Virus record (IMG/VR): IMGVR_UViG_3300023198_000987
From: a virus
DNA: 34,800 bases
Reading direction: 5' to 3' (one strand)
The notes under the pieces are model-generated. The model did no database searches, was not told where the DNA came from, and saw nothing but the letters and a program-made list of their open reading frames with translations. The translations under genes were made by a program, and so were the position numbers. Of this stretch, positions 12,560 to 34,588 are shown one piece after another. How positions within the stretch are numbered: the first letter of the stretch is position 1; each line of letters begins with the position of its first letter.

Positions 12560-12560
12560 C

Positions 12561-17252: not shown

Positions 17253-17900
17253 ATGGCCGACGATCAGTTTGATGTATGTTCCAAGGCGCTTGGTTTGATG
17301 GGCGAGGAACCGATTACCAGCTTCGAGGACGACACTGCCCAGTCAGAGCAATGCGGCCTTCATTATGAAATGTTCATCCGTTCGCTGATGATGGCGAAAG
17401 ACTGGTATTTCTTGCGCAAGCGGGCCGATCTGGTCGAAGATGGCGCGGCGGTTCCGGTGAATGAGTGGACGCGGGCGTTTCTGCTGCCGAGCGATGCACT
17501 GGGGCCGCCGGTCGCGGTGTTCTTTTCGTCATCGACCGGCGCAAGCCCGGTGGTCGAGGGGTGGGAAATCTCAGGCCGTCACCTTCTGACCGACGCGACG
17601 AGCGTCACGGTGCGCTACGCGGCGCGCGTCAATGAGGGGCTGTGGCCAGCATACTTCGAAAGCCTGGCCGTGTGGGGGCTGGCGGCGGAACTGTGTGTGC
17701 CGATCACCGAAAATGGTGCGCAGGCTGAGCGCTTGCACGTCAAGGCGTTTGGCAATCCGTCCGATAGCGGCAAGGGCGGTATGTTCATGAGCGCAGCCCA
17801 GGCCGATGAGGTAGGTCGCCCGACTGAAAGCCTGCTGGACGACAGCGACCCGATGACCGAGGCGCGCTTTGGTCACTACGGCGGGCGGGGATACTATTAA
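17253..17900 (+). CDS. Tail tubular protein A / adaptor (T7 gp11-like)
   Basis: 215 aa, the T7 gp11 size class. CSKALGLMGEEPITSFEDDTAQSEQCGLHYEMFIRSLMMAKDWYFL matches the AL..lG...i.s.....s.ea..c...y......ll....W.F pattern of podovirus gp11-like proteins. It sits directly before the nozzle gene. Confidence 0.55.
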   Translation: MADDQFDVCSKALGLMGEEPITSFEDDTAQSEQCGLHYEMFIRSLMMAKDWYFLRKRADLVEDGAAVPVNEWTRAFLLPSDALGPPVAVFFSSSTGASPVVEGWEISGRHLLTDATSVTVRYAARVNEGLWPAYFESLAVWGLAAELCVPITENGAQAERLHVKAFGNPSDSGKGGMFMSAAQADEVGRPTESLLDDSDPMTEARFGHYGGRGYY

Positions 17901-20662
17901 TGCCGGTTATGCGCCACACTCAGCATTCGCTGGCCGCAGGCGAGTTGCAGCCCGACGCCTGGGGGCGTGAGGATATCGGGCCGTTCTACAATTCCGCGCG
18001 CATTATCGAGAACATTACGTCGCTTGCGCAAGGCCGGTTTGGCCGACGCGAGGGAACGCGGCACAGTTACCCGCAACGCGGGGCACTGTCTCAGGTTGAC
18101 ACGACGGCAAGCGGCACCTGGACCGCGACCAGCGGCGGCACTGCGGGGAACATTGACGACGACGACGAGGCAACGGCGCTGTTGACGACAACCAGCGTGG
18201 GCACGACCGACGACTATGTGATTGCGCACCTTGATTTCGGGTCGGCCCAAGAGGTCGATTTTGTCGATTTCACCGACCTGCAATTCACGACGCTGCCCAG
18301 CGGCATCACCAGCGCCAGCATGGAGTTGCATTATTCGACCGACGATGCGGCATGGAGCGTGGCGGCCACGATCAACGTGGGGGCCACGGCCTATGATCGC
18401 CGGTTTGCTGCCGCGCCCGATGCGCACCTGTTCAATGCCCGGTATATGCGCCTGGTCCGCGCCGGGACCGATGATCTGGACACCGCCAAGGTGCAGTTTA
18501 CAGAGGCGCGCGTGTGGACCGAGGCCAGCCAGTCGGACAGCGGCGCGACGCTGGGCGCGATTTCCGAGCATGAGATTGCGACCGAGCGCGACGCGCAATT
18601 CAAGATCATCCTGACCGCCCTGAATGCCGACGTGTTCAACTCGGTGACGGGCGCGTTTGTTGCCGCGATTGCCATTCCGCACACGGAAGCGCAGATTGAC
18701 GCGATCAATTCAACCGCCGACCTTGATACAATGGTTCTGTTTCACCAGGACGTGCATCCGTTTGTGGTGCAGCGCCTTGATGATGAAAGCGATTGGCGCG
18801 GCGGAAATTATGAATTCGACACGATTGTTGCCTTTCCATTCGATGACGCGACAACATACCCGGCACAAAACGAGGTCCAGATTGCGGACTTCCAAAGCAT
18901 GTCCAATAACGACGAGTATGTGATCGAATTCGCGGGCGAACGCACCGACACAATCACATGGTCAAACACTTCATCGACCAACATGACGCGGATCAAAAAC
19001 GCAATCGAAAGCCTGCCGCAGTTTTCCAGCGTCACAGTGACGGACAAGGGCAATAGCGATTATGAGTATGAATTCGACGGCGACGACGCCGGGCGGTCAA
19101 TCGCGGTTTTGATCTTCGACCTGGCGACCGGCGGGGGCAACGCCAACGTCACGCGGATGCAGAACGGCAAGGCGGCGACTGATGATCTATGGGGCGCAGA
19201 CCGGGGCTATCCGTCTTGCGGCGCGTTCCACCAGGGCCGGTTCTGGCTTGGTGGCTTCAAGGCCCGGCCTGGCGTTCTGGCGGCAAGCCGGGCCGGTGAT
19301 GTGGCCGACTTCCGCGAGGAACTGGACCCGGTGGCCGCCTCGCCAATCGTTGTTGAGCCGCGCGTTGACGAGGAAGTGACGGTTGAGCGGATCGTGTCGG
19401 GCCGTCACCTTCAACTGTTCACATCGGCGGGCGAATTCTATACGCCAACGGAACCGATCACGCCCGACAACGTGGCGTTCAAGAACACGTCGCGCCATGG
19501 CGTGAGGCCCAACACCCGCACCGCAGACGTGCAGGGCGCAACGGTGTTTGCGGACGCATCCGGCACGGCGCTGCGCGAATATCTGTTCGAGGACAACGAG
19601 CAATCCTATTCCGCCGAGCCGATTTCACTGCTGGCCGGTCATCTGGTTTCCGATCCTCTGTCGCTGGCGCTGCGCCGGGCGCAGAACGCATGGACGCCGA
19701 CAATGTTGCTCGTGGCCAACAGCGGCAACGATGAGGCGGGCGACATGGTGCCAGCGGCGCGCGTGGTGATTGACCGTGTGCAATCCGTCGCGGCCTTCCT
19801 GCGCATGACGACGCGCCTGGGCACATTCAAGGCATTTGTCGCCACGCGATCCAGCCTGGCATCGGCGGTTGTCTATCGCACCCTGGCCGGGAATGCCTGG
19901 AACTACATCGAACTGTTTGACCCGGACTGCCTGAATGATTGCTCAACCTTCATCGACAATCCCGACATTGAGGACTTTGACGCCTCTGCCGATCAAACAG
20001 TGTTCACCTACACATTCACATCGCCAACCGAGGAAGGCGATATGCTGGTCATGTTCGAGGAAAGCGGTGTTTATCGCCCGTTGTCGGCGAGCGATTACAC
20101 GCTGGACTTGAGCGCGAAAACTGTGACCTTTGCCGTTGGTCGCAGTGAGGGCGACGCCATTCGTATCCTTCCAAGGATGGCGTCGCTCGACCTTTCCGAC
20201 GTGGCCGAGCGCTTTGAGGGCATTGAGGTACAGGTGAACAATGACGGCAAGAGCGTGGGGCGGTTTACGCCGTCCAGCAACACGATAGACCTGGGCGAAT
20301 TCCGTGTGGATCAACAGGCCGAGGTCGGGCTGTTCATGGTGCCGCGTCTTGAACTGCATCCGCCGAAGGGCAAGGGCGAAACGTCGCCGACAATGCAGAA
20401 CATGCGAATTTTCCGGGCGCTGATTTCGTTCTATCGCACCGCGACTTGCACCATTGGCATCGGCACTGGGCCGCAACGGACGGTGCCGCTGCAACGCTGG
20501 GGCGCGTTAGATGTGGACCCGGTGGCCGACGACTTGAATTTCACGGGCACAAAGCGGATCAGCGGCCTGCGGGGCTGGGCAGTTGAGCCGACACTTGTTT
20601 TAACGCAAAGTGAGCCGGGGCCGTGGGCAATCCGGTTTATCACTTATGACGCGAGGTTTTGA
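17900..20662 (+). CDS. Tail tubular protein B / nozzle (T7 gp12-like) with an inserted discoidin (F5/8 type C)-like domain
   Basis: 920 aa. The N-terminus SLAAGELQPDAWGREDIGPFYNSARIIENITSLAQGRFGRREGT parallels T7 gp12 GGISQQPDILRYPDQG...N. Residues about 65-208 follow the discoidin pattern (DDDDEAT..., YVIAHLDFGSAQEVDFV, ELHYSTDDAAWSV, ARYMRLV). Confidence 0.65.
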   Translation: MPVMRHTQHSLAAGELQPDAWGREDIGPFYNSARIIENITSLAQGRFGRREGTRHSYPQRGALSQVDTTASGTWTATSGGTAGNIDDDDEATALLTTTSVGTTDDYVIAHLDFGSAQEVDFVDFTDLQFTTLPSGITSASMELHYSTDDAAWSVAATINVGATAYDRRFAAAPDAHLFNARYMRLVRAGTDDLDTAKVQFTEARVWTEASQSDSGATLGAISEHEIATERDAQFKIILTALNADVFNSVTGAFVAAIAIPHTEAQIDAINSTADLDTMVLFHQDVHPFVVQRLDDESDWRGGNYEFDTIVAFPFDDATTYPAQNEVQIADFQSMSNNDEYVIEFAGERTDTITWSNTSSTNMTRIKNAIESLPQFSSVTVTDKGNSDYEYEFDGDDAGRSIAVLIFDLATGGGNANVTRMQNGKAATDDLWGADRGYPSCGAFHQGRFWLGGFKARPGVLAASRAGDVADFREELDPVAASPIVVEPRVDEEVTVERIVSGRHLQLFTSAGEFYTPTEPITPDNVAFKNTSRHGVRPNTRTADVQGATVFADASGTALREYLFEDNEQSYSAEPISLLAGHLVSDPLSLALRRAQNAWTPTMLLVANSGNDEAGDMVPAARVVIDRVQSVAAFLRMTTRLGTFKAFVATRSSLASAVVYRTLAGNAWNYIELFDPDCLNDCSTFIDNPDIEDFDASADQTVFTYTFTSPTEEGDMLVMFEESGVYRPLSASDYTLDLSAKTVTFAVGRSEGDAIRILPRMASLDLSDVAERFEGIEVQVNNDGKSVGRFTPSSNTIDLGEFRVDQQAEVGLFMVPRLELHPPKGKGETSPTMQNMRIFRALISFYRTATCTIGIGTGPQRTVPLQRWGALDVDPVADDLNFTGTKRISGLRGWAVEPTLVLTQSEPGPWAIRFITYDARF

Positions 20663-20664
20663 CC

Positions 20665-21207
20665 ATGGCGACAATGTTTCTCGCTATCGGAAAAGGGATC
20701 GGCGCGCTTGGCGCGGCGGGGGCATCGGCGACGGCGGGGGCATCGGCGACGGCGGTTGCCGGGCCGGTCGGCGCGGCCTCGCTGGGGCTGGCAAAGGGCC
20801 TGTCCGTTTTCCGGGCGCTGACCACAATTGCGGCGGGGGTATCCGCCAACCGAGCGGCGCAAGATGCGGCCAACGAAGCCAGTGTGACCGAAGCGCAGGA
20901 GGGGGCGGCAGGGTCCGCCAATCAGCGCAAGCTGGCCAAGGAATATGAGGCGCTGATTTCCGAGCAACAGGTTGTGCAGATCGCCAACGGGGTCAATCCG
21001 GCAGTGGGCACGGCCCGGCAAATTCGTGAGGCCACCAGCGCCGAGGCCGGGCGCGATCTGAACACCAACCGCAACAACTACCAAAACCGAATGCGCCTTG
21101 CGCGCCGTCGTCGCCGGGGGCTTTTGAGCGAAGGCCGCGCGGCGCTGCTCGGATCGTTTGGAACCGGCGCGGGCATTCTGGCAAAAGGAGTGAGCGATTA
21201 TGGCTAA
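20665..21207 (+). CDS. Internal virion protein, gp14-like (Gly/Ala-rich membrane-active N-terminus)
   Basis: 180 aa. Size and position match T7 gp14. The N-terminus is Gly/Ala hydrophobic and the protein has a second hydrophobic C-terminal segment. Confidence 0.5.
   Translation: MATMFLAIGKGIGALGAAGASATAGASATAVAGPVGAASLGLAKGLSVFRALTTIAAGVSANRAAQDAANEASVTEAQEGAAGSANQRKLAKEYEALISEQQVVQIANGVNPAVGTARQIREATSAEAGRDLNTNRNNYQNRMRLARRRRRGLLSEGRAALLGSFGTGAGILAKGVSDYG
20719..20754 (+). repeat. Perfect 18-bp tandem duplication (ggggcatcggcgacggcg, 2 copies) encoding GASATA GASATA
   Basis: Read directly from the sequence. Confidence 0.9.
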
Positions 21208-24200
21208 TGTCCGTCGCTATGGCCCGTCCCGCGTTGACCCGATGGTGCAGGGGCCGCAGCCCGTTCTGGACGGCGAAGCGCGGGCCATGGCTGGCTTCGC
21301 AAGCGTGTTGGGCGCTGCATCCGATTTTCTGCGCCCGGCGGCTATGGAGGTTCGCAAGCGGCAAGCCGAAACCGATCTGCTGGGCGAGGTCGAAACCGGC
21401 GGGCCGTCCTGGGAAGTGCGATCACAAGAGGCCGCCAGCGCGGGAACCATCGCAGGGCTTGATGCACGCCCGGTGCAGGGGCCGAACCTGCCGACTGCGC
21501 AGAAACCGCCCAGGCCTAAAGCCCGCCCTAACCTCGCTCAGGGGGCCGCAGGGGGTGGTGCCGCGCCGGTCACGGCGGCCAATGCGACGTTTATCCTGCC
21601 GGGCTTCCTGGGAATGGGCGACAAAACGCCGGGGGCCAGGCGAAATCGCGGGCTGACAGATGAATACATGGCGACGGTTTCGGCGATTGTCGCCGGATCG
21701 CTGGGCAAGGGCTGGGACGTGCGCGTCAAGTCGGGCGGTCAGTATTCCGAAAACCAGCTAAAACAGATGGCGGCTGCGCGGGGCATCACGAACCCGGTGG
21801 ATATCGCCAAGTTTGTCAATGCGCGCCGCACCGGATCAACCCGGCACGATGTACACGATCACGGGAAATCGGGCACGGCTGACTTTGTGCTGAGCTACAA
21901 CGGCAAAGATGTTACGCCCGATCAGAATAAAAAAGCCTACGCCAAACTGTTCCGTGCCGCTGCACCATATTTTCCGGGCATTGGGCATTATGGCTGGGGC
22001 GTTCACATTGGCGGCGGCAATGAAATGTTTTGGGGGCCGAACACACGCGGCCAAGATCACGATGAATTCAACGGCGACCTGACACTTTTGGCCGCCGTCC
22101 GCGAGGGCCGAGCGGCGGGCGGGCGCAAGTATGGGCAAACCCGCGTTGAGGTCGGGCCGGTGGCCGCTGGGCCTGACGGCAATTTCATTCCGCAAATGCC
22201 GGATATGGAACTGGTATCGACGGGGGGCGCATCATTCGAGCGCCGCTTGCCGTTTACCTATTATGACGCTGCATTCAACGAGGCCGCAGAGCGCGTGATT
22301 GGCGCGCGGGCGCGGCAGGCGCTTTATTCCGGGGCCTCTATTGCTGCGATGGAAGCGGGCGGCGACCTGGGCGCGCTCAATCAACAGATGGACGCCCTAC
22401 GCTCGCAGGTCATGGGTGATCTTCCCGCGTCGATGACCGGCCTTGCAATCGACATGGAAACCGAATTCGAAACGCAACGCGGCGTGGCGGTGCGGCAGGC
22501 AATCGGGCAGATCGAGAAAAAGACGATTGCCGGGCAAACCGAAGCCTTCAACATGGCGGTCGATGCGGCAAACGAACAAGCGCAATGGCTGGCTCTGTCC
22601 GGTGCCAGCACGTCGGAAATCCAGGGGCACCTGGTCCGCACACAGCGCCAGCTTGCGCAATTCGGGCCGCGTGAGGCGTTCACCTTCAACGGTGTGGACT
22701 ACCCTGCTGATCGGGCGCGCGCGGGGATCATGAGCGTTGCGCAGATGGGCGCGCAAATGCAGGCGATGGGTGACGCTTCGGCAGAAATGATGATCCGGGG
22801 GGATTTCGAGAGATCGACCGCCAAGGGCGCGTTTGTCTCGGAAATGAGGAAAGAGATTTTCGCGGGCCGGTCGCCCCTGCCGCCGGGTCAGGCGCTTCAA
22901 CTGCTGGGCCAGCTTGAGGTCGGGGTGCGGGCAGAACAGGCGCAGAAGGAAGCGGCGGCGCGGGCCGCTGCCGCCACGCTGAAAAAGCACACGACGGAAA
23001 CGATCAACCCCTACGTGTCGATGACCGAAGCCGGTGCGCCGATTGCCATTCCCGCCGAGGAACGGGCCGCGATCCTGGCCGATCTTGAGGGCTACCCGGC
23101 ATTGCAGCGCGAAGCCGAGGTTGCATTCGCCACGGCTGACGCTGCCGTTGCCACGCACGGCATGACCGGCGGGGAACTGAGCGCGTATATCAACAGTCAG
23201 AAAACCCAGCTTCAAGCCGCTGCCGAGCGCGGCGAAATAGATGACGAGGCAACCGCCGTCATTCTTCAACTCGAACATAAGCTGAAAGAACTTCAAAAGG
23301 GCATCACCGCCGACATGACAGGCGTGAACACAATTCTGGATGCAACGGTGGAGGGCACGGTTCTTGATGAAATTGACTGGGCCGGAATGGAGGCGCAGGC
23401 CGCAGGCAAGCCGGAATTGCTGGAACAGATCGCCCAGGCAAAAACGGTTTATGATACAATCGGCGATATGACCGACCTGACCGCCGATCAGCGCGATGAC
23501 GCGATGACGGCAATTCAGGAACGGCTGAACGATCTGGCCGCCGAGGGCAAGGGCTACGGCAAAGAGGGCGTGTTCATTGGCGAGGTTCTGGGCAAGCTGG
23601 ACGAGTGGAGTACCAACTTGACGGAAATGGCGCGCAGCGACGCCACGAGTTTCGCCAAGGCCAAGGGGATCGAGGTTATCCCGCTGGACGGTGAAACGAC
23701 TGGCGACCTGGGCGCGCAGGTTGCGCAGCGTGTGCTTGATGTGAGCCTTGCCGCCGAGGGTGAGGGCGTTTTGACGCCGGTTCCGCTGGACGCCGCCGAA
23801 AAGACACGGCTCAAAGGATTGTTGGACGATACCGAACTGTCGGCAACAGCGCGCATTGAATTCCTGGAAGGGCTGGCAGAATTGCCGATGGAACAGTCAA
23901 CGGCGGTTCTGGAAGCGCTGGGCGGGAATGGCATGTACGCAATCGCCGGTTCAATGGCGCGGCTGGGCCGGACGCAGGATGCGGAGGTCATGCTGTTTGG
24001 GACCGAAAGCGACCTGACCATTCCGAATAAAATCGACCGGCACACTATCAGGCAAGAGGTCGCGGGCGCGGCGATTGCGGCTGGCTACTTCGCTGTCGGC
24101 ACCCTGTCGCGCGTTGAGGATATCGCGGAGCATTACGCGATTGGCTTTGCGGCGCGGGATAACAAGGCCGAGGTCGAAGATAAGCACATGCAGATGGGCT

Positions 24201-24556
24201 ACGAGGTTGCATTCGGCATGGACAGCGCGACCAAGGCGGGCGGTGTTTACAATAGCAACTTTGGCCCGGTTATTCTGCCCGATAAATGGACGACCGAAGT
24301 GTTCAACAATGCGATGGGTGTGGCGAGCAACCCGCAGTTTTTGGAAATCGGATTGGGTGCCCAGCCGTTTGACACCTACGGCAAGCCAATTCCGTTTGGG
24401 CAATTCATGGGCCTGGTTGGCCAGATGAACCCGGTGCCGGGCAATCAGTACAAGTTTTTCCCTGCCGATGATTTTGGCAACACGTTTATTTATGAGGACG
24501 GATCGACGGTTGAACTTGACGTTTCGCGCCTTTGGGCGCTTGGGCGTGGCCAGTGA
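21200..24556 (+). CDS. Internal virion / ejection protein with an M15 (LAS-type) peptidoglycan peptidase-like domain
   Basis: 1118 aa. Residues about 150-280 (VRVKSGGQYSENQL...GSTRHDVHDHGKSGTADFVL...FPGIGHYGWGVHIGGG) resemble Peptidase_M15A/VanY-like motifs (S.H..G.A.D ... GiG.Y...vH). The rest is long and helical. It occupies the T7 gp15/16 position. Confidence 0.6.
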   Translation: MANVRRYGPSRVDPMVQGPQPVLDGEARAMAGFASVLGAASDFLRPAAMEVRKRQAETDLLGEVETGGPSWEVRSQEAASAGTIAGLDARPVQGPNLPTAQKPPRPKARPNLAQGAAGGGAAPVTAANATFILPGFLGMGDKTPGARRNRGLTDEYMATVSAIVAGSLGKGWDVRVKSGGQYSENQLKQMAAARGITNPVDIAKFVNARRTGSTRHDVHDHGKSGTADFVLSYNGKDVTPDQNKKAYAKLFRAAAPYFPGIGHYGWGVHIGGGNEMFWGPNTRGQDHDEFNGDLTLLAAVREGRAAGGRKYGQTRVEVGPVAAGPDGNFIPQMPDMELVSTGGASFERRLPFTYYDAAFNEAAERVIGARARQALYSGASIAAMEAGGDLGALNQQMDALRSQVMGDLPASMTGLAIDMETEFETQRGVAVRQAIGQIEKKTIAGQTEAFNMAVDAANEQAQWLALSGASTSEIQGHLVRTQRQLAQFGPREAFTFNGVDYPADRARAGIMSVAQMGAQMQAMGDASAEMMIRGDFERSTAKGAFVSEMRKEIFAGRSPLPPGQALQLLGQLEVGVRAEQAQKEAAARAAAATLKKHTTETINPYVSMTEAGAPIAIPAEERAAILADLEGYPALQREAEVAFATADAAVATHGMTGGELSAYINSQKTQLQAAAERGEIDDEATAVILQLEHKLKELQKGITADMTGVNTILDATVEGTVLDEIDWAGMEAQAAGKPELLEQIAQAKTVYDTIGDMTDLTADQRDDAMTAIQERLNDLAAEGKGYGKEGVFIGEVLGKLDEWSTNLTEMARSDATSFAKAKGIEVIPLDGETTGDLGAQVAQRVLDVSLAAEGEGVLTPVPLDAAEKTRLKGLLDDTELSATARIEFLEGLAELPMEQSTAVLEALGGNGMYAIAGSMARLGRTQDAEVMLFGTESDLTIPNKIDRHTIRQEVAGAAIAAGYFAVGTLSRVEDIAEHYAIGFAARDNKAEVEDKHMQMGYEVAFGMDSATKAGGVYNSNFGPVILPDKWTTEVFNNAMGVASNPQFLEIGLGAQPFDTYGKPIPFGQFMGLVGQMNPVPGNQYKFFPADDFGNTFIYEDGSTVELDVSRLWALGRGQ

Positions 24557-27500
24557 CGGATTGGATTAAAACAGCCGCACCGCGCGGGCAGGTTGCCGAT
24601 CTGAGCGGCGGGGCTGGGCTGTTGTCGTCCATCGGTGCCAGTTTTGGGCTTGAGGCACCAATGGATGCGCGGCGTGACGAAAAATTCAACCAGTCGGCAT
24701 ACGAGGAATACCTTGATTTCGCATTTGACAACTGGCCAGAAGATCAACCGATTGACCCACTGTTGGACCTTGAGGACCGCCTGGGCCTGTCTGCCTTCGA
24801 TGATGGTTCCGCGCCTGACATGGGCGACGTAAGCGGCGACCTGGGCGCGCTTAATGAAATCCTGACGCGGGGGGGCGTCGAGGTTCCAGAGCAATTTGGC
24901 GTTACAGCGGTGCAGGAAAGCCGCAACGACAAGGCGGAAAGCGATCTGGAACTGCGCGAATTCCAGGAACGGCGCATTGGTGCCGCTGGGCCGGTCGCTG
25001 GAACCGCCGGGGCCTTGATCGGTGGCTTTGGCGCACAATTCACGCACCCTGAAAACCTGGCCACGCTGGCAATCGGCGCACCTGCCCGAATTGGCTTTTG
25101 GGGTACGCTGGCGATTGAAAGCGCGCTGAATGCTGGGATTGAGGCGGGAATAACGCCGAGCCGCAACGCCTATCTCGAAGCGATTGGCGATGAGCCGGAA
25201 AGCGTTTGGGTCAATGCCCTGTTTGGCGCGGCCTTTGGTGCTGGCTTTGTGGCGCTGTTCAAGGGGCCGGGGGCACTGATCCGCACGCTCAAGGGGGGCG
25301 GCACGCCAGAGGAACGCCGCACCCTTGCCAAAGGCTTGCAGGACACCGGGCGCGCGGACGCTCAAGCTGTGGGCGCACGGATTGCCCGTGATCTGGACGA
25401 TGCCGCAGCCGCAGCAACCGAAACCGATGTGCTATCGGCGGGCGAGGCGCGTCAGCGTGAGACGCGCGCGGCGGTGGGCGAGCCGCAACCGGACAGGCCG
25501 ATCTTTGACACGGCACCTGGCGGGGCGCTGCTGTATGGTGCCGTCGATGAAGTCAGGGCCGCCGATCTGAAAATAATGCCGGGCCAGTTTCAATTCAAAA
25601 GTGATGCTGACGCTTCCGGGGTAACGGACAAGCTGCGCAATGATCCTGAATGGGACAACAGCCTGTCGGGCCGGGTTATCGTCTACGAATTCAAGGACGG
25701 CACCCGCGCGATTGTGGATGGGCACCAGCGCGTCAGCCTTGCGCAACGGATAATGAAGCGCGATCCATCCCAGGATATCCGCCTGCTGGCCGAGGTCTTG
25801 CGGGAAAGCGACGGCGTGTCGGTCGAGGCCGCGCGTGTGGCGGGCGCGATCAAGAACATTGCGGAAGCCGCAGACGGGATGACGGCGGCCATGGCACGCG
25901 ATGCAGCCAAGGTCTTGCGCGTTGCGCCAGAGGTCATTGAAAATCTGCCTGTCGGGCCGGGAACGATTGTCGCCACGCACCTGACGCGGTTGAGTGACGA
26001 CGCATTCGGGCTGTTCATCAACGAGGTTGTGCCGCAAAACTTTTCCGCTGCCGTTGGCCGCATGGTCGAGGACAAGGCGCTGCACCTGCCGATCATGCGG
26101 CTGCTGGAACGCCTGAAACCCGCGAACCTGGCGCAAGCCGAAAGCATCATTGACCAAGCCCTGAACGCGCCGCGCACAAAGGAAGTCACTTCCGATCTGT
26201 TTGGGGAAAGCGTCACGACCGAAAGCCTGTTCGCGGAAAAGGCCAAGGTGCTGGACCGCGCTCTGCGCATTCTGGGCGAGGACAAGGCGACATTCCGCAC
26301 CCTGACCGAGCGGGGCGACCGGATCACGTCGGCGGGCGAAAACCGGCTGGACCAGGCGTCCAATGCGGCGATAAGGCAAACCACGGAAACCGCGATGGCG
26401 CTGGTCAAAAAACTGGCGCACCGGGCGGGACCGATTTCGGAGGCTCTGAACGATGGCGCGAAAAGCTACAAAGACACCGGCAAAATCAAAGACGCAGCCC
26501 AAGCCGTCGCCGATGCTGTCCGACGAGGAATTGAACGAGGCGATCTTGACGGGGCTACAGGCAGCCGCGCAGGACCGGATGGCGATAATCAAGGCCAGAG
26601 CGCTCAAGCACCTGACCACAACGCCGCCGTCGGGGAACGAGGCAGCGAGGCGCAACGCGAACAAGTAGCGGCGAACCCGATCCGCGATACAGTCGAGCCG
26701 GAAGGGGGGCAATCCGCTGATGAAGTGGTGGCCGACGCCGAAGATGCTTTGAACGAGGTTCGCGCCGATTGGGAAGCACTAGAAGCCGAGGTTGAGGCGG
26801 GCACCGCTGGAGACAACAAGCTAGATTTGTACATGACGTTGAGCGCGGCCCTTAGCGATGCGCGGCGCGTTCTGGCCGATGCGTTGGCGGCGACGGGTAT
26901 GCCTGCCCGCTTGGAAACCCGCAATGGCAAGTTAAAAGCGCTTGTCGGCCCTCGCATGGATGGCCAGCCCGGCGCGCGCATTACTTATCTTGACGATAAG
27001 GGTCCGAGCGGCGACACGCACCACGATAGTTTCCAAGCTGCCTACAGGGACGCGCTTGACCAGGGGTATGAAAAGGTAGTTAGACCGATTGCGGACGAGC
27101 CGCGCGAGGCGTTTCAGGACGATAGCGACCTCCTGTCCGATCTGGCTGCGATTGTCGAAACCGGCATCGAGCGCGAGGTTATCGACAATCATCCGGCGGT
27201 GGTGCAAGCGCTGGAAGACATGGCAGCGCGCCCGGAAACCCGCGACGCGCCGGGCTACGACAGCGACGATTGGCACGCAACGCGGTCTTATGATTTCGAT
27301 GGCGAAACCGTCACCGGCACCGCCGAGGCCGTGCCGCGATGGGTCGCCAAGGCGCGCGAGCAAGCGGGGGAAACAGGCCAGGACCGCACGGCCACGATTG
27401 TTCTGGGGCCGCCTGCCGCCGGGAAATCCACGGTTGCCAATAAGATCGCGAAGGCGCAGCGCGCGGCAATCATCGACCCTGACGACATTAAGGCAACCCT

Positions 27501-28221
27501 GCCCGAATATGACGGCGGCATTGGCGCGAATGCCACACATGAGGAAAGCAGCGATCTTGCCAATGCCCTGATGGATGGCATGATGGCCGAGGGCGAAAAC
27601 CTGGTCATTCCCAAGGTCGGCGGCAATGAGGCAAGTATCGCCAGGGTTATTGCAAAGCTACGTGAAGCAGGCTATGTTGTCCGTGTGGCGAGCATGGCGG
27701 TTGAACCAGCCGAAGCCTACCGCCGCATGATCCTTAGATTTGTGAATACCGGGCGCTTGATCGCGCCGGAGTATGTGGACGCAGTGGGCGATAAGCCTGC
27801 CGCGGTGTTCCGGTCATTGCGCGACCAGGACGCTGCGGACGGCTTTGCAGAAATCGACAACAACGGGGGGATAGATGACCCAAAAGCAATCAGCGAAATC
27901 CAAGGGGAAAACCCATTCGACGGGACCAGCTTCGGCCTACCTGCGGCGCGAACTGAACCCGGAGCCGGAACCGAGCCAGGCAATGCGCGAGGCGGTGTCG
28001 AAGGGCCTGAAGTTGGCGAACGCCAAACCGACCTAGAGGACTTGATCGCCGAGCGCGATCCAGACAACCCCACATTCAAGGACTTGTTTGATACCATGCC
28101 GGGCGACCGGCTGGACGATGCGGGCGATGTTGTGTTTGAAAAGCGCAACCCGAACGACGTTGCGGCAGAACTGGATGAAATTGACGAAACGCTAGACATT
28201 GCAGAGGTTTGCCTGAAATGA
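24553..28221 (+). CDS. Polyvalent ejection-operon protein: hydrophobic Gly-zipper N-region, ParB/Srx-like nuclease domain, helical linker domains, zeta-toxin-like P-loop kinase domain, acidic C-terminal motif
   Basis: ParB-like: GQFQFK...GVTDKLRNDPEWDNSLSGRVIVYEFKDGTRAIVDGHQRVSLAQRI, with DGHQR at 25717-25731. Zeta-like: IVLGPPAAGKST (27406-27432), AAIIDPDDIKATLPEY, GENLVIPKVGG, REAGYVVRVASMAVEPAEAYRRMILRF..GR.I. Start is GTG 24553 (GTGA overlap); TTG 24532 and ATG 24661 are alternatives. Confidence 0.7.
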   Translation: MTDWIKTAAPRGQVADLSGGAGLLSSIGASFGLEAPMDARRDEKFNQSAYEEYLDFAFDNWPEDQPIDPLLDLEDRLGLSAFDDGSAPDMGDVSGDLGALNEILTRGGVEVPEQFGVTAVQESRNDKAESDLELREFQERRIGAAGPVAGTAGALIGGFGAQFTHPENLATLAIGAPARIGFWGTLAIESALNAGIEAGITPSRNAYLEAIGDEPESVWVNALFGAAFGAGFVALFKGPGALIRTLKGGGTPEERRTLAKGLQDTGRADAQAVGARIARDLDDAAAAATETDVLSAGEARQRETRAAVGEPQPDRPIFDTAPGGALLYGAVDEVRAADLKIMPGQFQFKSDADASGVTDKLRNDPEWDNSLSGRVIVYEFKDGTRAIVDGHQRVSLAQRIMKRDPSQDIRLLAEVLRESDGVSVEAARVAGAIKNIAEAADGMTAAMARDAAKVLRVAPEVIENLPVGPGTIVATHLTRLSDDAFGLFINEVVPQNFSAAVGRMVEDKALHLPIMRLLERLKPANLAQAESIIDQALNAPRTKEVTSDLFGESVTTESLFAEKAKVLDRALRILGEDKATFRTLTERGDRITSAGENRLDQASNAAIRQTTETAMALVKKLAHRAGPISEALNDGAKSYKDTGKIKDAAQAVADAVRRGIERGDLDGATGSRAGPDGDNQGQSAQAPDHNAAVGERGSEAQREQVAANPIRDTVEPEGGQSADEVVADAEDALNEVRADWEALEAEVEAGTAGDNKLDLYMTLSAALSDARRVLADALAATGMPARLETRNGKLKALVGPRMDGQPGARITYLDDKGPSGDTHHDSFQAAYRDALDQGYEKVVRPIADEPREAFQDDSDLLSDLAAIVETGIEREVIDNHPAVVQALEDMAARPETRDAPGYDSDDWHATRSYDFDGETVTGTAEAVPRWVAKAREQAGETGQDRTATIVLGPPAAGKSTVANKIAKAQRAAIIDPDDIKATLPEYDGGIGANATHEESSDLANALMDGMMAEGENLVIPKVGGNEASIARVIAKLREAGYVVRVASMAVEPAEAYRRMILRFVNTGRLIAPEYVDAVGDKPAAVFRSLRDQDAADGFAEIDNNGGIDDPKAISEIQGENPFDGTSFGLPAARTEPGAGTEPGNARGGVEGPEVGERQTDLEDLIAERDPDNPTFKDLFDTMPGDRLDDAGDVVFEKRNPNDVAAELDEIDETLDIAEVCLK

Positions 28222-30701
28222 GTTTTGGTGACTGCATCCGCCGCGCCGTCGATGACGGGCACATTCCACCAGAGCGCGCGCGCGAACTATTGGAGGAACA
28301 CGCAAGCGAGGCCGCCGACATGGGCGCGGCCATGGGCGACGTGCAGGCCGACGCGGCTGCGGCGCGGGCGATCCTCGACCGGACACGCCAGGAAACATTC
28401 CAGCGCCGTCGCCGCACGGGCCTGACGCGATCAACGCTCAAGCGCCGCACTGATGAACTGTCAGAGCATCGCACCCTGACCGGCAAGATCAACCCGGCGG
28501 CGGCACTGTCTGCAATGGTGGAGGATCCAAGCGGCACCTATGCCGGGCAAACCATGACCGGGCAGTATCATGCCGTCCGATCCTACCTCAAAGGGCCGAT
28601 GAGCGAGGCCATGCGGACATTCCGCCGCAATGCCCTGACCATGCGCCGCAAAAAAGCGCTGATGATGGACACGCTGCGCGAGGTATTCGGCGAGGAAACG
28701 GGCGACGCCCAGGCCAAGGGCTTTGCTAAGGTGTGGGCCGACACCGCCGAGCGGGCGCGCACCAGGTTCAACGCGGCAGGCGGCGATATTGCCAAGCTGG
28801 CGCGCTGGAACATGCCGCAATGGCATGACACGAATAAGGTGCGGGGTGCCCGGCCCGGCGAGTGGGCCGACGCGACCGACGGCCTGCTTGATTGGGACGC
28901 GATGGCCGAGCGCGACAATGGGGGCGTTCCCTATAGCGCCGCAAAGCGCCGGGCAATACTGGATCGGGTCAACGAAGATATCCGCACCGACGGCCACGCC
29001 AGCCGCAACCCGACCGCACACGCGGGCCGGGGCATGATGGCAAAACGCCGATCCGATCACCGCTTTCTGATCTTCAAGGACGCGGATAGCTGGGCGTCCT
29101 ACAACGAGCAATTCGGCGGCGGGGCCGATCCTTTCGACACAATGCTGCGGCATCTGGACAGCATGGCGCGCGATATTGCCATGATGGAAGTGCTAGGGCC
29201 AAACCCGACGCATTCATGGGCCTGGCTCAAGGATGGCGCGCGGGGCATCGCGGCACGATCCGGCGAAAAGGATGCGCTCAAGCTGTTTGAAAAACGGCTC
29301 TATCAGGCCGAAAGTAAGTTTCGGCTGTTCACCGGGGAAACCAACGTGCCGGTCAACGAGCGGATGGCGGCCACAATGGCGGCAACCCGCAACTGGCTTT
29401 CGGCGTCTCTGCTGGGCAAGGCGGTGATTTCTTCGATCTCGGATTTCAACTCGCAGCGTGTTTCTGCCAAATTCGTCGGCGTGGGGCAGTTTCAATTTCT
29501 GAGTGACTTTGTGCGACTGGCAGCATCCGGGGCCAATCGTGAGGCGGCGGGCGACCTGGGGCTGATCCTGTCCGTCGGACTGGACTATGGCGCGGCTGCC
29601 GCGCGGCATGACCTGGAAGATATGGTTATGAAGTCGAGCGCGGGCATTGCCGAAAGCGTTATTCGTATGTCCGGCCTTGGCTTCCTGACCGAAACGCACC
29701 GGACGGCGGCGGGCACGTCGCGGATGCGGGCATTTGCTGCCGCGCGTGATAAGGGCTGGGGCGAGTTGGACCCGCGTCAACGCCGGTTTCTGCAAAAGAT
29801 GGGGCTGACCGAAGGCGATTGGGACTTGATGCGCGCGGGCGACATGGACGACTTCGCCGGGCTTGAGGTTATGGGCATGAACGCGGTGCGCAAGGCGGCG
29901 GGCCAGGAGGCGGCTGATCGCTGGATGGCGGGCATCTATCGCGACATAGAGTTTGCGGTGCCCAGCGCGACGATATCAGGCCGGGCGGCTGTTATCGGGC
30001 AATCGAAACCCGGCACACTGACGGGCGAGACGGCGCGGGCCGTGTTTCAGTTTCGCAGTTTTTCCCTGACGGTTCTGATGACGCACGTTGCGCGGTCGGT
30101 TTCCGAGGCATTCGACGGGCGACCGCTGACGGCGGCGAACTATGCGGCGCAACTGCTGATCTGGAACACAATTCTGGGCGGCGTGGCCATACAGTTGAAA
30201 GAGATTGCAGCGGGCCGCGATCCAAAGGACATGACGACGGCCAAATTCTGGGTCGCGGCAATGGCTCAGGGTGGCGGGCTGGGCATCTTCGGGGATTTCA
30301 TTTTTACGGATCACAACCGCTTTGGCGGCGGGCTGGGCACAACGCTGGGCGGGCCGACGCTGGGGCTGGGCACCGATATTGTTGGGGCGACGCTGGGCAA
30401 TGTGCAGAACGTGGTGCGCGGCGAGGAAACCAACGCGGGCGCAGAGTTTGTGCGACTGGGCCGCAACTACACGCCGGGCGGCAACCTTTGGTTTGCCGAT
30501 ATGCTTTGGGAACGGGAGGTTATGGACCGTCTTGAAGATATCCTGAACCCGGATGCAAGCCGATCCTTCCGGCGAAAAAGGAAGTCCGCGCGTGACTTTG
30601 ACACGCAATTCTTTTATCCACCAGGTGCGGCAACTGGTGGCGGGCGGTCGAGCATTCGGCTTCCCGATCTGAAAAACGCTCTAGGCGACGGGGGCCGATA
30701 A
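28218..30701 (+). CDS. Internal virion protein (827 aa), function unknown
   Basis: ATG 28218 overlaps the upstream stop (ATGA). It is a large helical protein with C-terminal hydrophobic Gly-rich segments ([17 protein letters not shown]). It lies between the ejection proteins and the fibre. Confidence 0.6.
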
Positions 30702-32404
30702 TGGCGCACACTGAAAACAATATGCAGGTCGGGCCGTCGCTTCTGGCGAACGGTGTGGACACAATCGGGCTTGATTTCTACTTCGCCGCCAATGCGGAAC
30801 TGGTGGTTTACAAGCAAGGGTCTGACACGCCGCTGGTGCTTGATACCGATTACACGGTCACGGGGGCGGGCACGTCGTCGGGCGTGGTGACACTGACAAC
30901 GCCAGCGGACGGATCGACATATTACGCGGTTTTGTGGGCGGATAGCGTTGAGCGGGCCAGCAATATCGGATCACGCGCGGGCTTCACTGCCAGCTTGTTC
31001 AACAATGCGATGGATCAGGTCTATCGGCATTTGTCGCGGTTGCTGACTAAGTTTGACCGGGCGCTGATGGTTGAGCCGACTTCGGAAGCCGTGACAACCA
31101 GCGTGGGCCGGGCGACAGATCGGGCGTCCAAGTATCTCAAATTTTCCGCCGATGGGCTGGACCTTGAGACGACGACGGGGCCGAGCGACGGGGCAGATGG
31201 TGCTGACGGGGCAGACGGCAGCGACCCCGGTTTCCTCTACCTGTTCGATACCGGCACCGCTGCGGCTGGTATTCCGGGCGGTGACATTCGTTTCAACCAT
31301 GCGACCGTGGCCAGCGTCACTGAAATTTTCATTGCTGACGCGGATAAGAGCGCTGCCGATCTTTCCAGTTTTGTCAACGCTTGGGACGTAGGTGAGTTGA
31401 TCGTTCGTAATACCGTCACGTCCGCTAAGGTCGCGGTGTTCACAGTAACGGCTGCGGCTAACGGTTCGGGCGTGACGACCCTGACTGTGACAGGTGGCGT
31501 TGGGGGCACAGCGCTGGCCGATAACGACCCCGTTTCGGTGCAATTCTACCGCAAGGGTGACACGGGGGCTACGGGTGCAACGGGCGCAGCCGGTGCCACG
31601 GGTGCCACGGGTGCGACCGGCGCTGACGGCGCTGACGGTGCGGACGGTGCGGACGGGGCCACCGGTGCCACGGGTGCCACGGGTCCGAGCGGCGCTGACG
31701 GTGCGGACGGTGCGGACGGGGCCACGGGTGCCACGGGTGCCACGGGTGCGACCGGCGCTGACGGTGCGGACGGCGCTGACGGTGCGGACGGCGCTGACGG
31801 CGCTGACGGTGCGGACGGCGCTGACGGTGCGGACGGCGCAGCGGGCCTTAGCGGGGGCTTCAACTATACGTTCAGCACGACTGTAACGGACGCAGACCCC
31901 GGTGCTGGAAACTTGCGGTTCGATAACGTCACGATAGGAAGCGTGACAGGTGTTTATATCAGCGAAACGGATGACGACAGCCGAGATTTGGCTGCATATT
32001 TGGCGAGCGTTGATGGTGGTCGTCTAATCATCCGACAGCTAAATGATGCGACCAAATGGGCCGCGTTGGAAATTACAGCGATGACCGATAACACCGACTA
32101 TATCGACTGGACGGTGACGGTCACGGACGCCGGGGTTCTGCCTGATGATGCTGCCGCGATAAGTGTCGAGGTTATTCCCGGTGGTGCTGGTGGTTCTACT
32201 CTTGGCGCGGAACAAAACGGATCGTGGTCGAGTTATTCTGATTGGGGTAGCGCTTCCTCGATGTCAGGTACTCTGACATCTGGTCAAGCCGCACCAAGCG
32301 ACGGGGTAATCACTGGGATTGAATGGGCGGATTCAACAGCGGGGCCGAATGATAACACCTACGAAACAATGCGAACGCGCGTGACTTACAGGAGTGTAAC
32401 CTAA
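30701..32404 (+). CDS. Tail fibre: T7 gp17-like N-terminal adaptor, duplicated beta-domain flanking a 33-triplet collagen-like Gly-X-Y tract, divergent C-terminal tip
   Basis: The N-terminus [19 protein letters not shown]...[11 protein letters not shown]...[26 protein letters not shown]...FNNAMDQ parallels T7 gp17 (FNIPFEYL...V.......L....DY......i.L.....g....i.R.t). GDT/GAT/GAD triplets cover aa 286-384. Confidence 0.8.
31556..31852 (+). repeat. Collagen-like triplet repeat (33 Gly-X-Y codon triplets, mostly GAT and GAD) built from 9-bp units ggtgccacg / ggcgctgac / ggtgcggac
   Basis: Counted directly from GDT at 31556 to GLS ending at 31852. A short GAD x3 tract also occurs near 31190-31215. 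Confidence 0.95.
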
Positions 32405-34016: not shown

Positions 34017-34588
34017 CCCCGTTTTTGTTCAAAAATGGAGAGCGTCAGTTCTACGAATTGGCGCAGGCGGAGTGGGATAGGGGCACGCCCGGTCCTGATG
34101 GCCGTGCGAACGTGCCTATCACAGGCGCTCTGCTGGGTTATCTTGCCGACGAGCTGAGTATCGCTGCAAGGGCATTTGAAAGTTCGCTCAATGAGGCTTA
34201 CGGCCCGGTTGACATCACGATTTGCCGGGCGATGTTTGCAACTCAGCCAGCAAGCCCTGAACTGACCCCGGTTCGCGGCAAGCACTTGGACACGGGCGAC
34301 AAGGCGATTGTGGGGCTGTGGTACTTCGCACACCCCGGCGATCTTGCGGGCGGGAACCTCAAGCTGGGGCTGGACACGATGATCCCGTACCAGCCAAACT
34401 CGATGGTCATATTTCCGAATTTGCCGTCCGCATGGCACGAGGTCACGCCTCGAGGGCCGTCTATCTACGACCGGCGTTTTATCAATTTTGTGGCAGAGAC
34501 AGATGTTCGGTTGCACGATTATTGTCGTGACCCTTTGGGGCGCGATAGGTTAATGGAAGTTAAGGCGCGGCCAGATCGCAGCAAATAA
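34013..34588 (+). CDS. 2OG-Fe(II) oxygenase, prolyl-4-hydroxylase-like (2OG-FeII_Oxy_3 type)
   Basis: RGKHLDTGDKAIVGLWYF (HxD), GGNLKL, PNSMVIFPNLPSAWHEVTP (distal His) and YDRRFINF (2OG-binding Arg) occur in canonical order and spacing. Confidence 0.7.
   Translation: MTPFLFKNGERQFYELAQAEWDRGTPGPDGRANVPITGALLGYLADELSIAARAFESSLNEAYGPVDITICRAMFATQPASPELTPVRGKHLDTGDKAIVGLWYFAHPGDLAGGNLKLGLDTMIPYQPNSMVIFPNLPSAWHEVTPRGPSIYDRRFINFVAETDVRLHDYCRDPLGRDRLMEVKARPDRSK

Follow-up and report, generated by a model that had tools for sequence, protein, structure and literature searches.

An exchangeable zeta-type kinase cassette on a ParB/Noc-like core in a podovirus ejection-operon protein

Results and discussion

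The window analysed here, a 34,800-nt stretch of viral DNA (IMG/VR record IMGVR_UViG_3300023198_000987), encodes a 1222-aa protein. It is probably an ejection protein, housed inside a podovirus virion, in which a scaffold that stays conserved carries an exchangeable effector cassette. The cassette contains a zeta/PezT-type kinase and the scaffold a domain of the ParB/Noc fold. A preceding sequence-only reading had proposed an injected multi-domain effector in the ejection operon; both modules, the translational coupling of the gene, a polyvalent relative and the interchangeable cassettes support this candidate. The features are listed in Table 1.

Table 1 Features of the 1222-aa protein gene and its neighbours (positions in the window)
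Feature	Residues (aa)	Position	Strand	Evidence or remark
Tail tubular proteins A (17253-17900) and B (17900-20662)		17253..20662	+	phrog_394 E 2e-28, phrog_376 E 8e-56
Two upstream slot genes, 182 aa and 1118 aa		20659..24556	+	ORF list, Pfam, sister-contig comparison
Whole gene, 1222-aa multi-domain protein	1-1222	24553..28221	+	stop overlaps downstream ATG (ATGA)
Acidic N-terminal region	1-140	24553..24972	+	21 D+E vs 6 K+R in first 100 aa
Hydrophobic Gly/Ala-rich helices	141-246	24973..25290	+	three segments
ParB/Srx-like alpha+beta domain	330-445	25540..25887	+	AF2 model, Foldseek, invariant columns
Mobile conserved core	346-670	25588..26562	+	phrog_10691 E 6e-44
Helical region	446-665	25888..26547	+	first ~100 aa within ParB/Noc DNA-binding-domain match
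Cargo cassette	711-1148	26683..27996	+	missing from P0002; Tas1-like domain instead in other relatives
Helical N-terminal extension of kinase	857-935	27121..27357	+	conserved with zeta cassette
Zeta/PezT-type P-loop kinase	943-1129	27379..27939	+	Pfam, PDB profile, model, Foldseek
Walker A GPPAAGKST	952-960	27406-27432	+	K958 = zeta K46
IIDPDD	973-978	27469-27486	+	D977 = zeta D67
PKVGG in place of zeta E116-GTGR		27610-27624	+	alignment
AGYVVRVASMAVEP	1039-1052		+	motif of the sequence-only reading, confirmed in place
LRF..TGR	1061-1068	27733-27741 (R1062), 27748-27759 (R1068)	+	R1062 = zeta R158; R1068 = zeta R171
Disordered Gly/Pro/Glu-rich linker	1130-1168	27940..28056	+	pLDDT <50
Conserved C-terminal tail	1169-1222	28057..28218	+	helix, beta-hairpin, long helix; near-terminal Cys
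827-aa internal virion protein		28218..30701	+	phrog_684 E 2e-155; tblastn to 120 phages

Gene and operon context

The open reading frame is a real gene. It starts with GTG at 24553, overlapping the upstream TGA as GTGA, and ends with the stop codon 28219-28221; the start is supported by a homologue, P0002, that aligns from residue 1. The four-gene slot and the motifs described before were all recovered in place, with genes at 20659-21207 (182 aa), 21200-24556 (1118 aa), 24553-28221 (1222 aa) and 28218-30701 (827 aa from an ATG overlapping the stop as ATGA, 830 aa from a TTG at 28209). Start/stop overlaps of 4-8 nt were read directly at the three junctions, and the ORF coordinates imply like overlaps at the tube B and fibre ends of the slot. 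The 1222-aa gene is translationally coupled, with tail tube B upstream and a homologue of the epsilon15 gp17/T7 gp16 class downstream, a gene order found alike in SI2 and three sister contigs.

The phage belongs to the epsilon15/VP5/Pelagibacter-podophage structural group. The 827-aa protein is homologous to proteins of these three groups, of which the epsilon15-group homologues were assigned to the T7 gp16 (IVP-D) family by Hardies et al. (PMC4819975). At the position of the 1118-aa protein, the sister phages encode a protein of about 1050-1070 aa with 36-37 % identity (tblastn), and Pfam SLT matched two of three of these proteins, one of them weakly. In this lineage the slot normally comprises four to five genes and some gene is always present at the position of the 1222-aa protein; the earlier description of an extra ejection-operon protein is valid against T7, but not within the phage's own lineage. 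Neither T7 gp15/gp16 nor their published relatives matched the 1222-aa protein in Pfam, PHROG or PDB, and no T7 ejection protein was among the PDB fold matches of the core model (Foldseek). The position-equivalent protein of Pelagibacter phage Skadi-3, an internal virion protein of 424 aa, showed weak collinear similarity (hhalign E 1e-3, probability 22 %; hmmsearch E 0.026). An endolysin of the phage itself, an amidase, is encoded at 112-738.

The gene is placed between tail tube B and the fibre and adjoins genes for recognised internal virion proteins. It shares the operon position, the tight translational coupling and the hydrophobic helices with T7 gp14-gp16, epsilon15 gp15-gp17 and N4 gp50; homology to gp15 or gp16 is not detectable. 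Packaging and ejection of the protein are inferred from synteny and analogy. Gly-rich hydrophobic helices (aa 145-163 and 220-236; hydropathy on the Kyte-Doolittle scale peaking at 1.83 at aa 218-236) belong to a putative membrane-insertion or oligomerisation region that is kept in most family members. The C-terminal tail of ~55 aa, which members have regardless of whether their cargo is zeta, Tas1-like or missing, is a candidate assembly or incorporation signal.

An exchangeable cassette

The cassette consists of a disordered acidic/Gly linker, a helical extension and the kinase, and stands between the core and the conserved C-terminal tail. P0002 lacks aa 711-1148, retains the tail and is 83 % identical elsewhere. 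In another pair of relatives (P0012 and P0040) both flanks are 100 % identical around unrelated cassettes. Among 205 core-bearing relatives, zeta cargo was present in 62 and Tas1-like cargo in 57; 22 had other cargo and 64 none. The second cargo is apparently a (p)ppApp-synthetase domain, as the profile of 18/19 sister proteins of this cluster matched Tas1 (6ox6) with an E value of 7e-13. On the core tree, at least 84 changes of cargo class were counted. Since the cassette is exchanged or missing in related phages, the cargo has to be seen as accessory and under diversifying pressure, with a constant scaffold, and the occurrence of near-identical relatives with a different toxin or none gives the protein the appearance of a DNA-coinjected protein with a replaceable weapon. 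The single-site cassette swap between conserved flanks is a new result of this analysis; it was not found in the consulted passages of the survey of polyvalent proteins by Iyer et al. (PMC5512222).

Such a pattern also brings to mind a weapon in competition. Virions would deliver a lethal enzyme to cells without the matching immunity, be it competitors or cells lysogenic for rival phages, following the polymorphic-toxin logic of MuF proteins, and the cassette turnover would reflect toxin/immunity arms races. The two common cassettes are each of a known toxin family, zeta/PezT from toxin-antitoxin modules in one case and the type VI secretion effector Tas1 in the other; the frequent changes of cargo class and the different cassettes between identical flanks agree with this view, and MuF polymorphic toxins with (p)ppApp-synthetase domains are a phage precedent (PMC5576092, PMC12226406). 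However, neither in the window nor in three sister contigs is the toxin gene followed by an immunity-like gene, the next gene overlapping it by 4 nt, and no gene co-varies with the cargo type in the available loci, which cover mainly the structural module. We consider a competition weapon unlikely.

The expression of the gene along with the late structural genes would suit an action in the producing cell, without injection: the kinase would block peptidoglycan precursors and assist lysis, while the ParB-like core would handle the genome during packaging. Zeta toxins do cause autolysis via inhibition of cell-wall synthesis (PMC5923241). Yet the kinase is fused in frame between the conserved core and the tail inside an internal-virion-protein operon, about a third of the relatives have no cassette, a Tas1-like ATP drain in the producer would oppose ATP-driven packaging, and an endolysin is already at hand. 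We consider a late action very improbable.

The zeta-type kinase

The zeta-toxin-type kinase signature of the sequence-only reading was confirmed by profile and structure. Pfam Zeta_toxin (PF06414) matched aa 943-1103 with an E value of 2.4e-18 (66.8 bits; cutoff 22.3), far above chance, and the family profile matched the PDB zeta sequence 1gvn (E 6.9e-5). The kinase and its extension were modelled confidently, with pLDDT >90 across aa ~860-1129. In Foldseek, the zeta/PezT structures 3q8x, 2p5t and 1gvn came first (E 3e-8 to 3e-7; TM 0.58-0.63 normalised to target, rmsd 3.2 Å) and AvrRxo1 next; polynucleotide kinases were also matched (4gp7 with a TM of 0.70 normalised to target; phrog_505 with E 1e-5). 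Among PDB sequences no match to the helical N-terminal extension was obtained. Of 48 aligned kinase modules, 46-47 retain K958, D975/D977, R1062 and R1068. The kinase is apparently active.

The fold, the Lys, the Asp and the two Arg agree with a zeta kinase, but Glu116/G-T-G-R of zeta, the substrate motif of UDP-GlcNAc kinases, is replaced by P-K-V-G. The zeta segment aligns to N-L-V-I-P-K-V-G-G, and within P-K-V-G the Pro (Pro1020) and the Gly are each present in 47 of the 48 modules, the Lys in 35. Because of this replacement, UDP-GlcNAc cannot be taken for granted as the substrate. With zeta, PezT and AvrRxo1 the module has in common its fold as well as the Lys of Walker A, the catalytic Asp and both transition-state Arg. 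Besides the altered substrate segment, it differs from zeta and PezT by the additional helical N-terminal extension of ~80 aa, the embedding in a 1222-aa structural-operon protein and the lack of an antitoxin gene: no epsilon/PezA-type gene was present beside the kinase gene in the window or the sister contigs, where both flanking genes are large structural genes overlapping by 4 nt.

The unusual substrate pocket would also be compatible with an anti-defence enzyme that, at DNA entry, disables a defence pathway by 3'- or 5'-phosphorylation of NAD, of a nucleotide second messenger or of a nucleic-acid end, general host metabolism not being the target. The NAD kinase AvrRxo1 is structurally second to zeta/PezT, and polynucleotide kinases are among the matches. 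The role of zeta Asp67 has been described, and the substrates of the zeta family vary (PMC5923241). Iyer et al. cast polyvalent proteins as early counter-defence (PMC5512222). But there was no match to any PADLOC defence model and no tie of the 1222-aa protein to a specific defence system, and the alternative cassette is of a plain ATP-draining toxin type. We regard the anti-defence function as quite improbable.

The ParB/Noc-like core

The mobile core recurs in about 2200 protein clusters (2188) of 750 aa to 4142 aa length, with the invariant or near-invariant motifs FQFK (25588-25599), DGHQR (25717-25731) and KNIAE (25852-25866). The AF2 model of aa 325-690 had a pLDDT of 84.7, and all 24 top PDB matches in Foldseek were Noc, ParB or Spo0J (probability 0.77-1.0), the best with an E value of 1e-4, probability 1.0 and 231 aligned columns. 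The alignments to Noc/ParB covered 220-233 columns and included the helical DNA-binding part; after the first ~100 aa of the helical region the model continues with a beta-hairpin (DLFGE..., aa 548-) and long helices. Sulfiredoxin appeared further down in the PDB list, and phage ParB proteins were matched in BFVD. The ParB signature noted earlier stands as a confidently matched fold, but no sequence profile detects it: Pfam ParBc or related models were not matched at E ≤ 0.1 by the whole protein, at E ≤ 0.01 by 40 members or even at E ≤ 10 by the isolated domain, and a family profile had no match, to ParB or otherwise, among the PDB sequences.

The core has in common with the ParB/Noc/Spo0J clamps the ParB/Srx-domain fold, the helical DNA-binding domain after it, and a strand leading into a helix with the motif G-x-x-R; in Noc, a membrane-binding element is joined to such a fold. 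Across 40 sequences D389-G-H-Q-R393 does not vary, and in the model it joins the strand 385-389 to the helix 391-403. By its position, DGHQR may be the counterpart of ParB GERR. The motifs FQFK, DGHQR and KNIAE follow the order of the CTP-binding boxes QPR, GERRxR and ENLQR, with different residues. Unlike the clamps, the core is part of a virion-operon protein, has no ParA partner or known parS-like site, and lacks a sequence-profile match.

The sequence-only reading had called the module a ParB-like nuclease; such an enzyme, once injected, could degrade host DNA. The ParB/Srx fold includes several nucleases or NTPases, and nuclease activity is predicted for polyvalent ParB domains by Iyer et al. 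(PMC5512222). The invariant Asp and Arg of DGHQR fit the pattern given there for DdrB-like ParB domains, an active-site Arg together with an Asp/Asn that closes a strand; D389 is the last residue of its strand and R393 comes after it. The best templates, however, are CTP-dependent DNA clamps (Noc, ParB), the match spans their DNA-binding domain, and P1 DdrB showed no similarity to the family profile (hhalign probability 0.4 %, a weak test with a single-sequence template). Moreover, the core is retained in cargo-less members, which suggests a structural or mechanical role. A nuclease core is doubtful, though it deserves some weight; given the clamp templates and the DNA-binding-domain match, binding of DNA or NTP by the modelled core is at least as likely as cleavage.

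Proposed function and relation to known systems

For the scaffold-and-cassette protein favoured here, we infer the membrane topology, the DNA binding and the kinase substrate as follows. The scaffold, that is the N-terminal hydrophobic Gly-zipper region, the ParB/Noc-like domain with its helical DNA-binding part, the long helices and the ~55-aa tail, would be packaged on the portal core together with the other internal proteins. At infection the protein would exit via the tail and anchor in the inner membrane, where the ParB/Noc-like module may hold or guide the entering DNA end, possibly under nucleotide control. The cassette is tethered by two disordered linkers. Ahead of any phage gene expression, a few injected kinase copies could phosphorylate an abundant nucleotide-sugar or dinucleotide (UDP-GlcNAc-like or NAD-like) using host ATP. 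This would stall the envelope or the central metabolism of the host, or else a defence that relies on it.

A growth-arresting toxin could harm the replication of its own phage, most of all the ATP-draining Tas1-like alternative, which speaks against this explanation.

Enzymes riding on ejection proteins are known from the T7 gp16 transglycosylase and the N4 virion RNA polymerase (PMC8954989, PMC4819975). The single enzymatic module on ejection proteins in the review PMC8954989 is the muralytic domain, the N4 polymerase being taken from PMC4819975, and the words "toxin" and "effector" are absent from the text of that review.

The 1222-aa protein parallels the MuF polymorphic toxins, which join a conserved, virion-associated N-terminal carrier to a variable toxin domain (Jamet et al. 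2017, PMC5576092); (p)ppApp-synthetase cargo occurs both in MuF toxins (Apk2, PMC12226406) and in sisters of the 1222-aa protein. It differs in that the scaffold is a ParB/Noc-like protein of a tail-proximal ejection operon, that the cassette lies inside the protein, ahead of a conserved tail, and that there is no adjacent immunity gene. In Pfam, the MuF domain PF04233 was not matched by the 1222-aa protein. In cyanophage PSS2, gp030 carries a zeta domain fused to the head-internal MuF, with 34 % identity to the kinase of the window (tblastn, E 3e-7); zeta-MuF fusions are noted by Iyer et al. (PMC5512222).

The protein agrees with the polyvalent proteins that Iyer, Burroughs, Anand, de Souza and Aravind (2017, PMC5512222) described computationally from phages and conjugative elements. 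These unite disparate enzymatic domains in one polypeptide, are encoded beside virion genes and are predicted to be injected with the DNA. The components listed there include ParB-superfamily domains, zeta-like kinases, RelA/SpoT and ART. The zeta kinases described in that paper are MuF fusions in phages and proteins of conjugative elements, not podovirus ejection-operon proteins, and in distinction to polyvalent ParB domains, the core matches by sequence neither Pfam ParBc nor P1 DdrB. The polyvalent architecture proposed before is supported by the union of the ParB/Noc-like core and the zeta kinase in one protein and by the recurrence of the core in other combinations: it is combined with ART-PolyVal and LPD38 in other proteins, and in a 3912-aa protein of Ruegeria phage 45A6 it occurs with an SNF2 helicase, a methyltransferase, GNAT and LPD38.

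Position of the gene in the ejection operon

At its 5' end the gene shares bases with the upstream 1118-aa gene, its GTG start lying across the TGA there (GTGA); at its 3' end the TGA runs into the ATG at 28218 of the next gene (ATGA). One junction further upstream, the overlap is 8 nt. The product of 1222 aa begins at the same residue as that of a homologue with 83 % identity (P0002). All peptide motifs named in the sequence-only reading were found in the protein at the positions proposed there. A GC3 filter for gene calling rejects the open reading frame itself. Two long antisense open reading frames inside the gene (426 aa and 202 aa) are attributed to the high G+C content of the DNA, since the plus strand carries all evidence from homology and domains.

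The 1118-aa upstream protein had no match in Pfam or PHROG. Its counterparts in two sister contigs matched the Pfam family SLT (lytic transglycosylase), weakly in one of them; the protein is probably a muralytic ejection protein with an enzyme domain diverged or lost in the window. The downstream protein of 827-830 aa matches phrog_684 (E 2e-155) and has counterparts in 120 phages from the epsilon15, VP5 and Pelagibacter-podophage groups. Hardies et al. had recognised homology to T7 gp16, IVP-D in their naming, in epsilon15 gp17 and VP5 gp18 (PMC4819975).

The sequence-only reading had considered the gene an extra member of the ejection operon. The interval from tail tube B to the fibre holds five genes in Enterobacter phage Tyrion and in Pelagibacter phage Skadi-3, and four each in SI2 and in three sister contigs. 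Hence the gene counts as extra only with T7 as the reference; within its own lineage this position is always filled by a gene. The protein in the equivalent position of Skadi-3 (424 aa) resembles the N-terminal hydrophobic region weakly and in collinear order (hhalign E 1e-3, probability 22 %; hmmsearch E 0.026), which is only suggestive of a relationship. As a query in protein searches, aa 1-330 yielded no matches, probably because Gly/Ala-rich word matches swamped the search.

A ParB/Noc-type core

A ParB-like module had been proposed from the sequence. Profile searches did not recover it: Pfam had no ParB match at E<=0.1, 0.01 or 10, a PDB search with the family profile returned none, and NCBIfam gave a weak match at aa 377-449 (E 0.007) without identifying ParB. 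The fold, however, bears the proposal out. A model of aa 325-690 was built from 40 sequences (pLDDT 84.7), and in a Foldseek comparison to the PDB the first 24 places were occupied by Noc, ParB and Spo0J only, with sulfiredoxin lower. The best match was Noc (7nfu; E 1e-4, probability 1.0, 231 columns, TM 0.52 normalised to target), spanning the ParB/Srx domain and the following helical DNA-binding domain. In a viral structure library the core matched homologous large phage proteins, some of them named "large polyvalent protein associated domain-containing", followed by phage ParB/Spo0J proteins. At the level of the predicted structure, a ParB/Noc-type fold is thus established. Three invariant or nearly invariant family motifs, FQFK (aa 346-349), DGHQR (aa 389-393, at a strand-to-helix junction of the model) and KNIAE (aa 434-438), have the same order as the ParB nucleotide-binding boxes, with other residues. 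P1 DdrB is the prototype of the ParB domains described in polyvalent proteins by Iyer et al. (PMC5512222); an hhalign comparison of DdrB with the family profile, a weak test with a single sequence, found nothing.

A search with the core alone retrieved 2188 cluster representatives at E<=1e-3, and 938 at the stricter limit of E<=1e-30, in proteins of about 750 aa to 4142 aa; the core represents a large domain family of about 2200 clusters missed by Pfam. In a 3912-aa protein of Ruegeria phage 45A6 the core (aa ~740-1080) is joined by SNF2-type helicase, methyltransferase, GNAT and LPD38 domains, which makes this protein typical of the polyvalent proteins defined by Iyer et al.; ART-PolyVal or LPD38 are carried by other core members. 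The record of this cultured roseobacter phage (KT820175) labels the protein as hypothetical only. Gene 114 of Halovirus HCTV-5 (1293 aa) was deposited as 'zeta toxin and ParB nuclease domain protein', so the pairing had already been claimed for an archaeal tailed virus. Pfam confirmed the zeta domain (E 1.7e-20) and had no ParB match at E<=0.001.

The zeta-type kinase

The second module of the sequence-only reading, a zeta-toxin-like kinase, was confirmed by a match to Pfam Zeta_toxin at aa 943-1103 (E 2.4e-18), and a profile of 48 kinase modules matched the PDB zeta structure 1gvn (E 6.9e-5). With an AlphaFold2 model of aa 840-1222 (pLDDT 85.4), zeta and PezT were the best fold matches (E 3e-8, rmsd about 3.2 A, TM about 0.6 normalised to target), followed by AvrRxo1 and generic P-loop kinases. 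In the alignment K958 corresponds to zeta K46, D977 to the catalytic D67, R1062 to R158 and R1068 to R171. Their conservation in 46-47 of the 48 modules speaks for an active enzyme. Where zeta has V-I-E116-G-T-G-R, the aligned residues here are V-I-P-K-V-G-G, whose proline is almost invariant among the 48 modules; these modules define a zeta-kinase subfamily with an altered substrate pocket. Known substrates in the zeta family are UDP-GlcNAc, UDP-MurNAc and NAD (PMC5923241); in view of this variation no single substrate is assigned.

A helical extension of about 80 aa (aa 857-935) accompanies the kinase in every case. It has no recognisable relative, and neither the extension nor the C-terminal tail had an informative sequence match in the PDB. 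The EzeT protein of E. coli reportedly carries a cis-acting antitoxin, and by analogy the idea arises that the extension may act in this way. Searches with defence-system models gave no PADLOC match.

Cassette polymorphism

The kinase sits in an internal cassette, aa 711-1148, because P0002, with 83 % identity over aa 1-710 and 86 % over aa 1149-1222, has no counterpart of this stretch, and because the last ~55 aa form a conserved tail common to members with and without cargo. The linkers bounding the cassette are predicted to be disordered. The G+C content does not set the cassette apart: 0.616 at 27001-28000, which covers most of it, versus 0.618 and 0.636 in the flanking 1-kb windows.

A second cargo cluster comprised 19 non-zeta relatives (P0023, P0026-28, P0030-32, P0035, P0037, P0040, P0042, P0047-48 and P0054-59; alignment A3). 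A profile of 18 of these 19 proteins matched Tas1 (6ox6; E 7e-13), a Pseudomonas type VI (p)ppApp-synthetase toxin. The Tas1-like domain, not detected by Pfam, occupies the same position as the kinase cassette of the window. Local profile searches sorted 205 core-bearing proteins into carriers of a zeta kinase (62, of which 56 have the conserved C-terminal tail), of a Tas1-like domain (57, 47 with tail), of no cargo, defined as less than 200 aa after the core (64, 44 with tail), and of other or unknown cargo (22, 5 with tail).

On a neighbour-joining tree of 198 core sequences at least 84 changes of cargo class were counted, a figure inflated by the use of cluster representatives, in which close relatives of the same class are collapsed. 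Direct evidence, independent of this count, comes from P0012 (zeta) and P0040 (Tas1-like), which are 100 % identical over about aa 298-690 and the last ~100 aa, and 10-20 % identical in the stretch between these flanks. P0036 and P0055 show the same pattern of identical flanks and different cassettes. A separate kinase gene appeared to be present in the loci L004 and L005, which pointed to gene fission; tblastn homology continues in another frame, and these are single frameshifted genes. The frameshifts are most likely assembly errors, the alternative being programmed frameshifting.

An adjacent antitoxin or immunity gene was absent from the window and from three sister contigs with zeta, Tas1-like and no cargo. 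In each of them the next gene overlaps by 4 nt, leaving no room for such a gene. No window gene co-varied with the cargo in six related loci, a weak test on loci that share only the structural module with the window.

A putative delivery function

The protein is read as a structural ejection protein also delivering an enzyme, because the hydrophobic helices, the core and the tail are constant and the cassette is accessory. The membrane-active N-terminus and the Noc-like fold suggest an anchoring at the inner membrane, where the protein may hold or guide the entering DNA; the flexibly tethered kinase would have host ATP and a nucleotide-type metabolite as its substrates in the cytoplasm. It is quite possible, while falling short of probable, that the podovirus ejection apparatus includes a so far unrecognised effector-delivery platform, in which a membrane-anchoring ParB/Noc-like DNA clamp carries one swappable internal cassette that is injected before gene expression. 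The carriers would be a large group of mostly uncultured podoviruses of ~35 kb, and recombination would exchange the cassette, even between near-identical phages, for a zeta-type kinase, a Tas1-like (p)ppApp synthetase, other enzymes or nothing. Upon injection, host nucleotide or cell-wall metabolism might collapse within seconds. Type VI and toxin-antitoxin toxin families would then be first-strike weapons of phages, apparently with no immunity gene linked to them. The cargo variants also prompt the question how a phage withstands an enzyme of its own that drains ATP or precursors. The benefit of the injected toxin has three rival explanations: host shut-off, anti-defence and competition. The three natural states (zeta, Tas1-like, none) between flanks of up to 100 % identity are ready-made controls that could reveal which of these applies.

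In cyanophage PSS2 a zeta domain is fused to the head-internal MuF domain and matches the window kinase in tblastn (34 % identity, E 3e-7). As the carrier there is MuF and here a ParB-like scaffold, the predicted virion delivery of zeta-type kinases recurs on independent carriers. In short-tailed phages, ejection proteins have been studied as a DNA conduit. A review of them describes muralytic modules alone as riding on these proteins and leaves toxins or effectors unmentioned (PMC8954989); the N4 virion RNA polymerase is a further enzyme precedent (PMC4819975). The present family would add catalytic toxins to this cargo, and its ParB/Noc-fold carrier may handle the entering DNA itself. Computationally the category is already known, from polyvalent proteins (PMC5512222) and MuF polymorphic toxins (PMC5576092, PMC12226406). 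The literature searched provided no account of the carrier, its place in the podovirus ejection operon or the zeta, Tas1-like and empty polymorphism.

Phage genome and relatives

Features of the window and of the comparison loci
Feature	Sequence	Position	Strand	Remark
Amidase endolysin	window	112-738
DUF3560 protein	window	5541-6377	-	E 4e-31
Small terminase	window	8391-8957
Large terminase	window	9591-11318
Portal	window	12540-14198
T7-type scaffold	window	14855-15823
Major capsid protein	window	15892-16875
Tail tube A	window	17253-17900
Tail tube B	window	17900-20662
1118-aa upstream protein	window	21200-24556
Carrier gene	window	24553-28221	+
Antisense ORF	window	25432-26712	-	426 aa
Antisense ORF	window	26932-27540	-	202 aa
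Collagen-repeat fibre	window	30701-32404		Pfam Collagen E 4e-14, aa 286-340 (triple-helix repeats); putative tail fibre
2OG-Fe(II) oxygenase	window	34013-34588	+	weak match, E 1e-3
Frameshifted gene	L004	7854-11146		shift at about 9671/9677 (tblastn)
Frameshifted gene	L005	8050-11632		shift at about 9873/9908 (tblastn)
45A6 3912-aa protein	L006	11781-23519
Counterpart of 1118-aa protein	L008	6834-10004
Tas1-like carrier	L008	10001-13294
Counterpart of 1118-aa protein	L009	6789-10001
HCTV-5 gene 114	L011	3545-7426

The window appears to hold almost all of a phage genome of about 35 kb, and the 1222-aa protein is encoded in identical form on a 35,363-bp metagenomic contig. A virion RNA polymerase was not seen in the window. 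No relatives at the DNA level emerged when 20.8 kb of the window were compared by megablast with the phages in GenBank. Among GenBank records, "Dunaliella viridis virus SI2" (L001, NC_023841) is the closest and has the same gene order. This record names a green alga as host; its podophage structural module is complete and syntenic with the window, and genes for Erf and exonuclease VIII are also present. SI2 is probably a bacteriophage out of a non-axenic algal culture. Early genes of the window include exonuclease VIII, an HNH protein and a DnaD-like loader, and the DUF3560 protein is among them. The oxygenase match lies near the right end. The AT skew reaches +0.33 at 8001-9000, a stretch that takes in the small terminase gene and the last part of the DnaD-like gene, versus -0.2 to +0.24 elsewhere.
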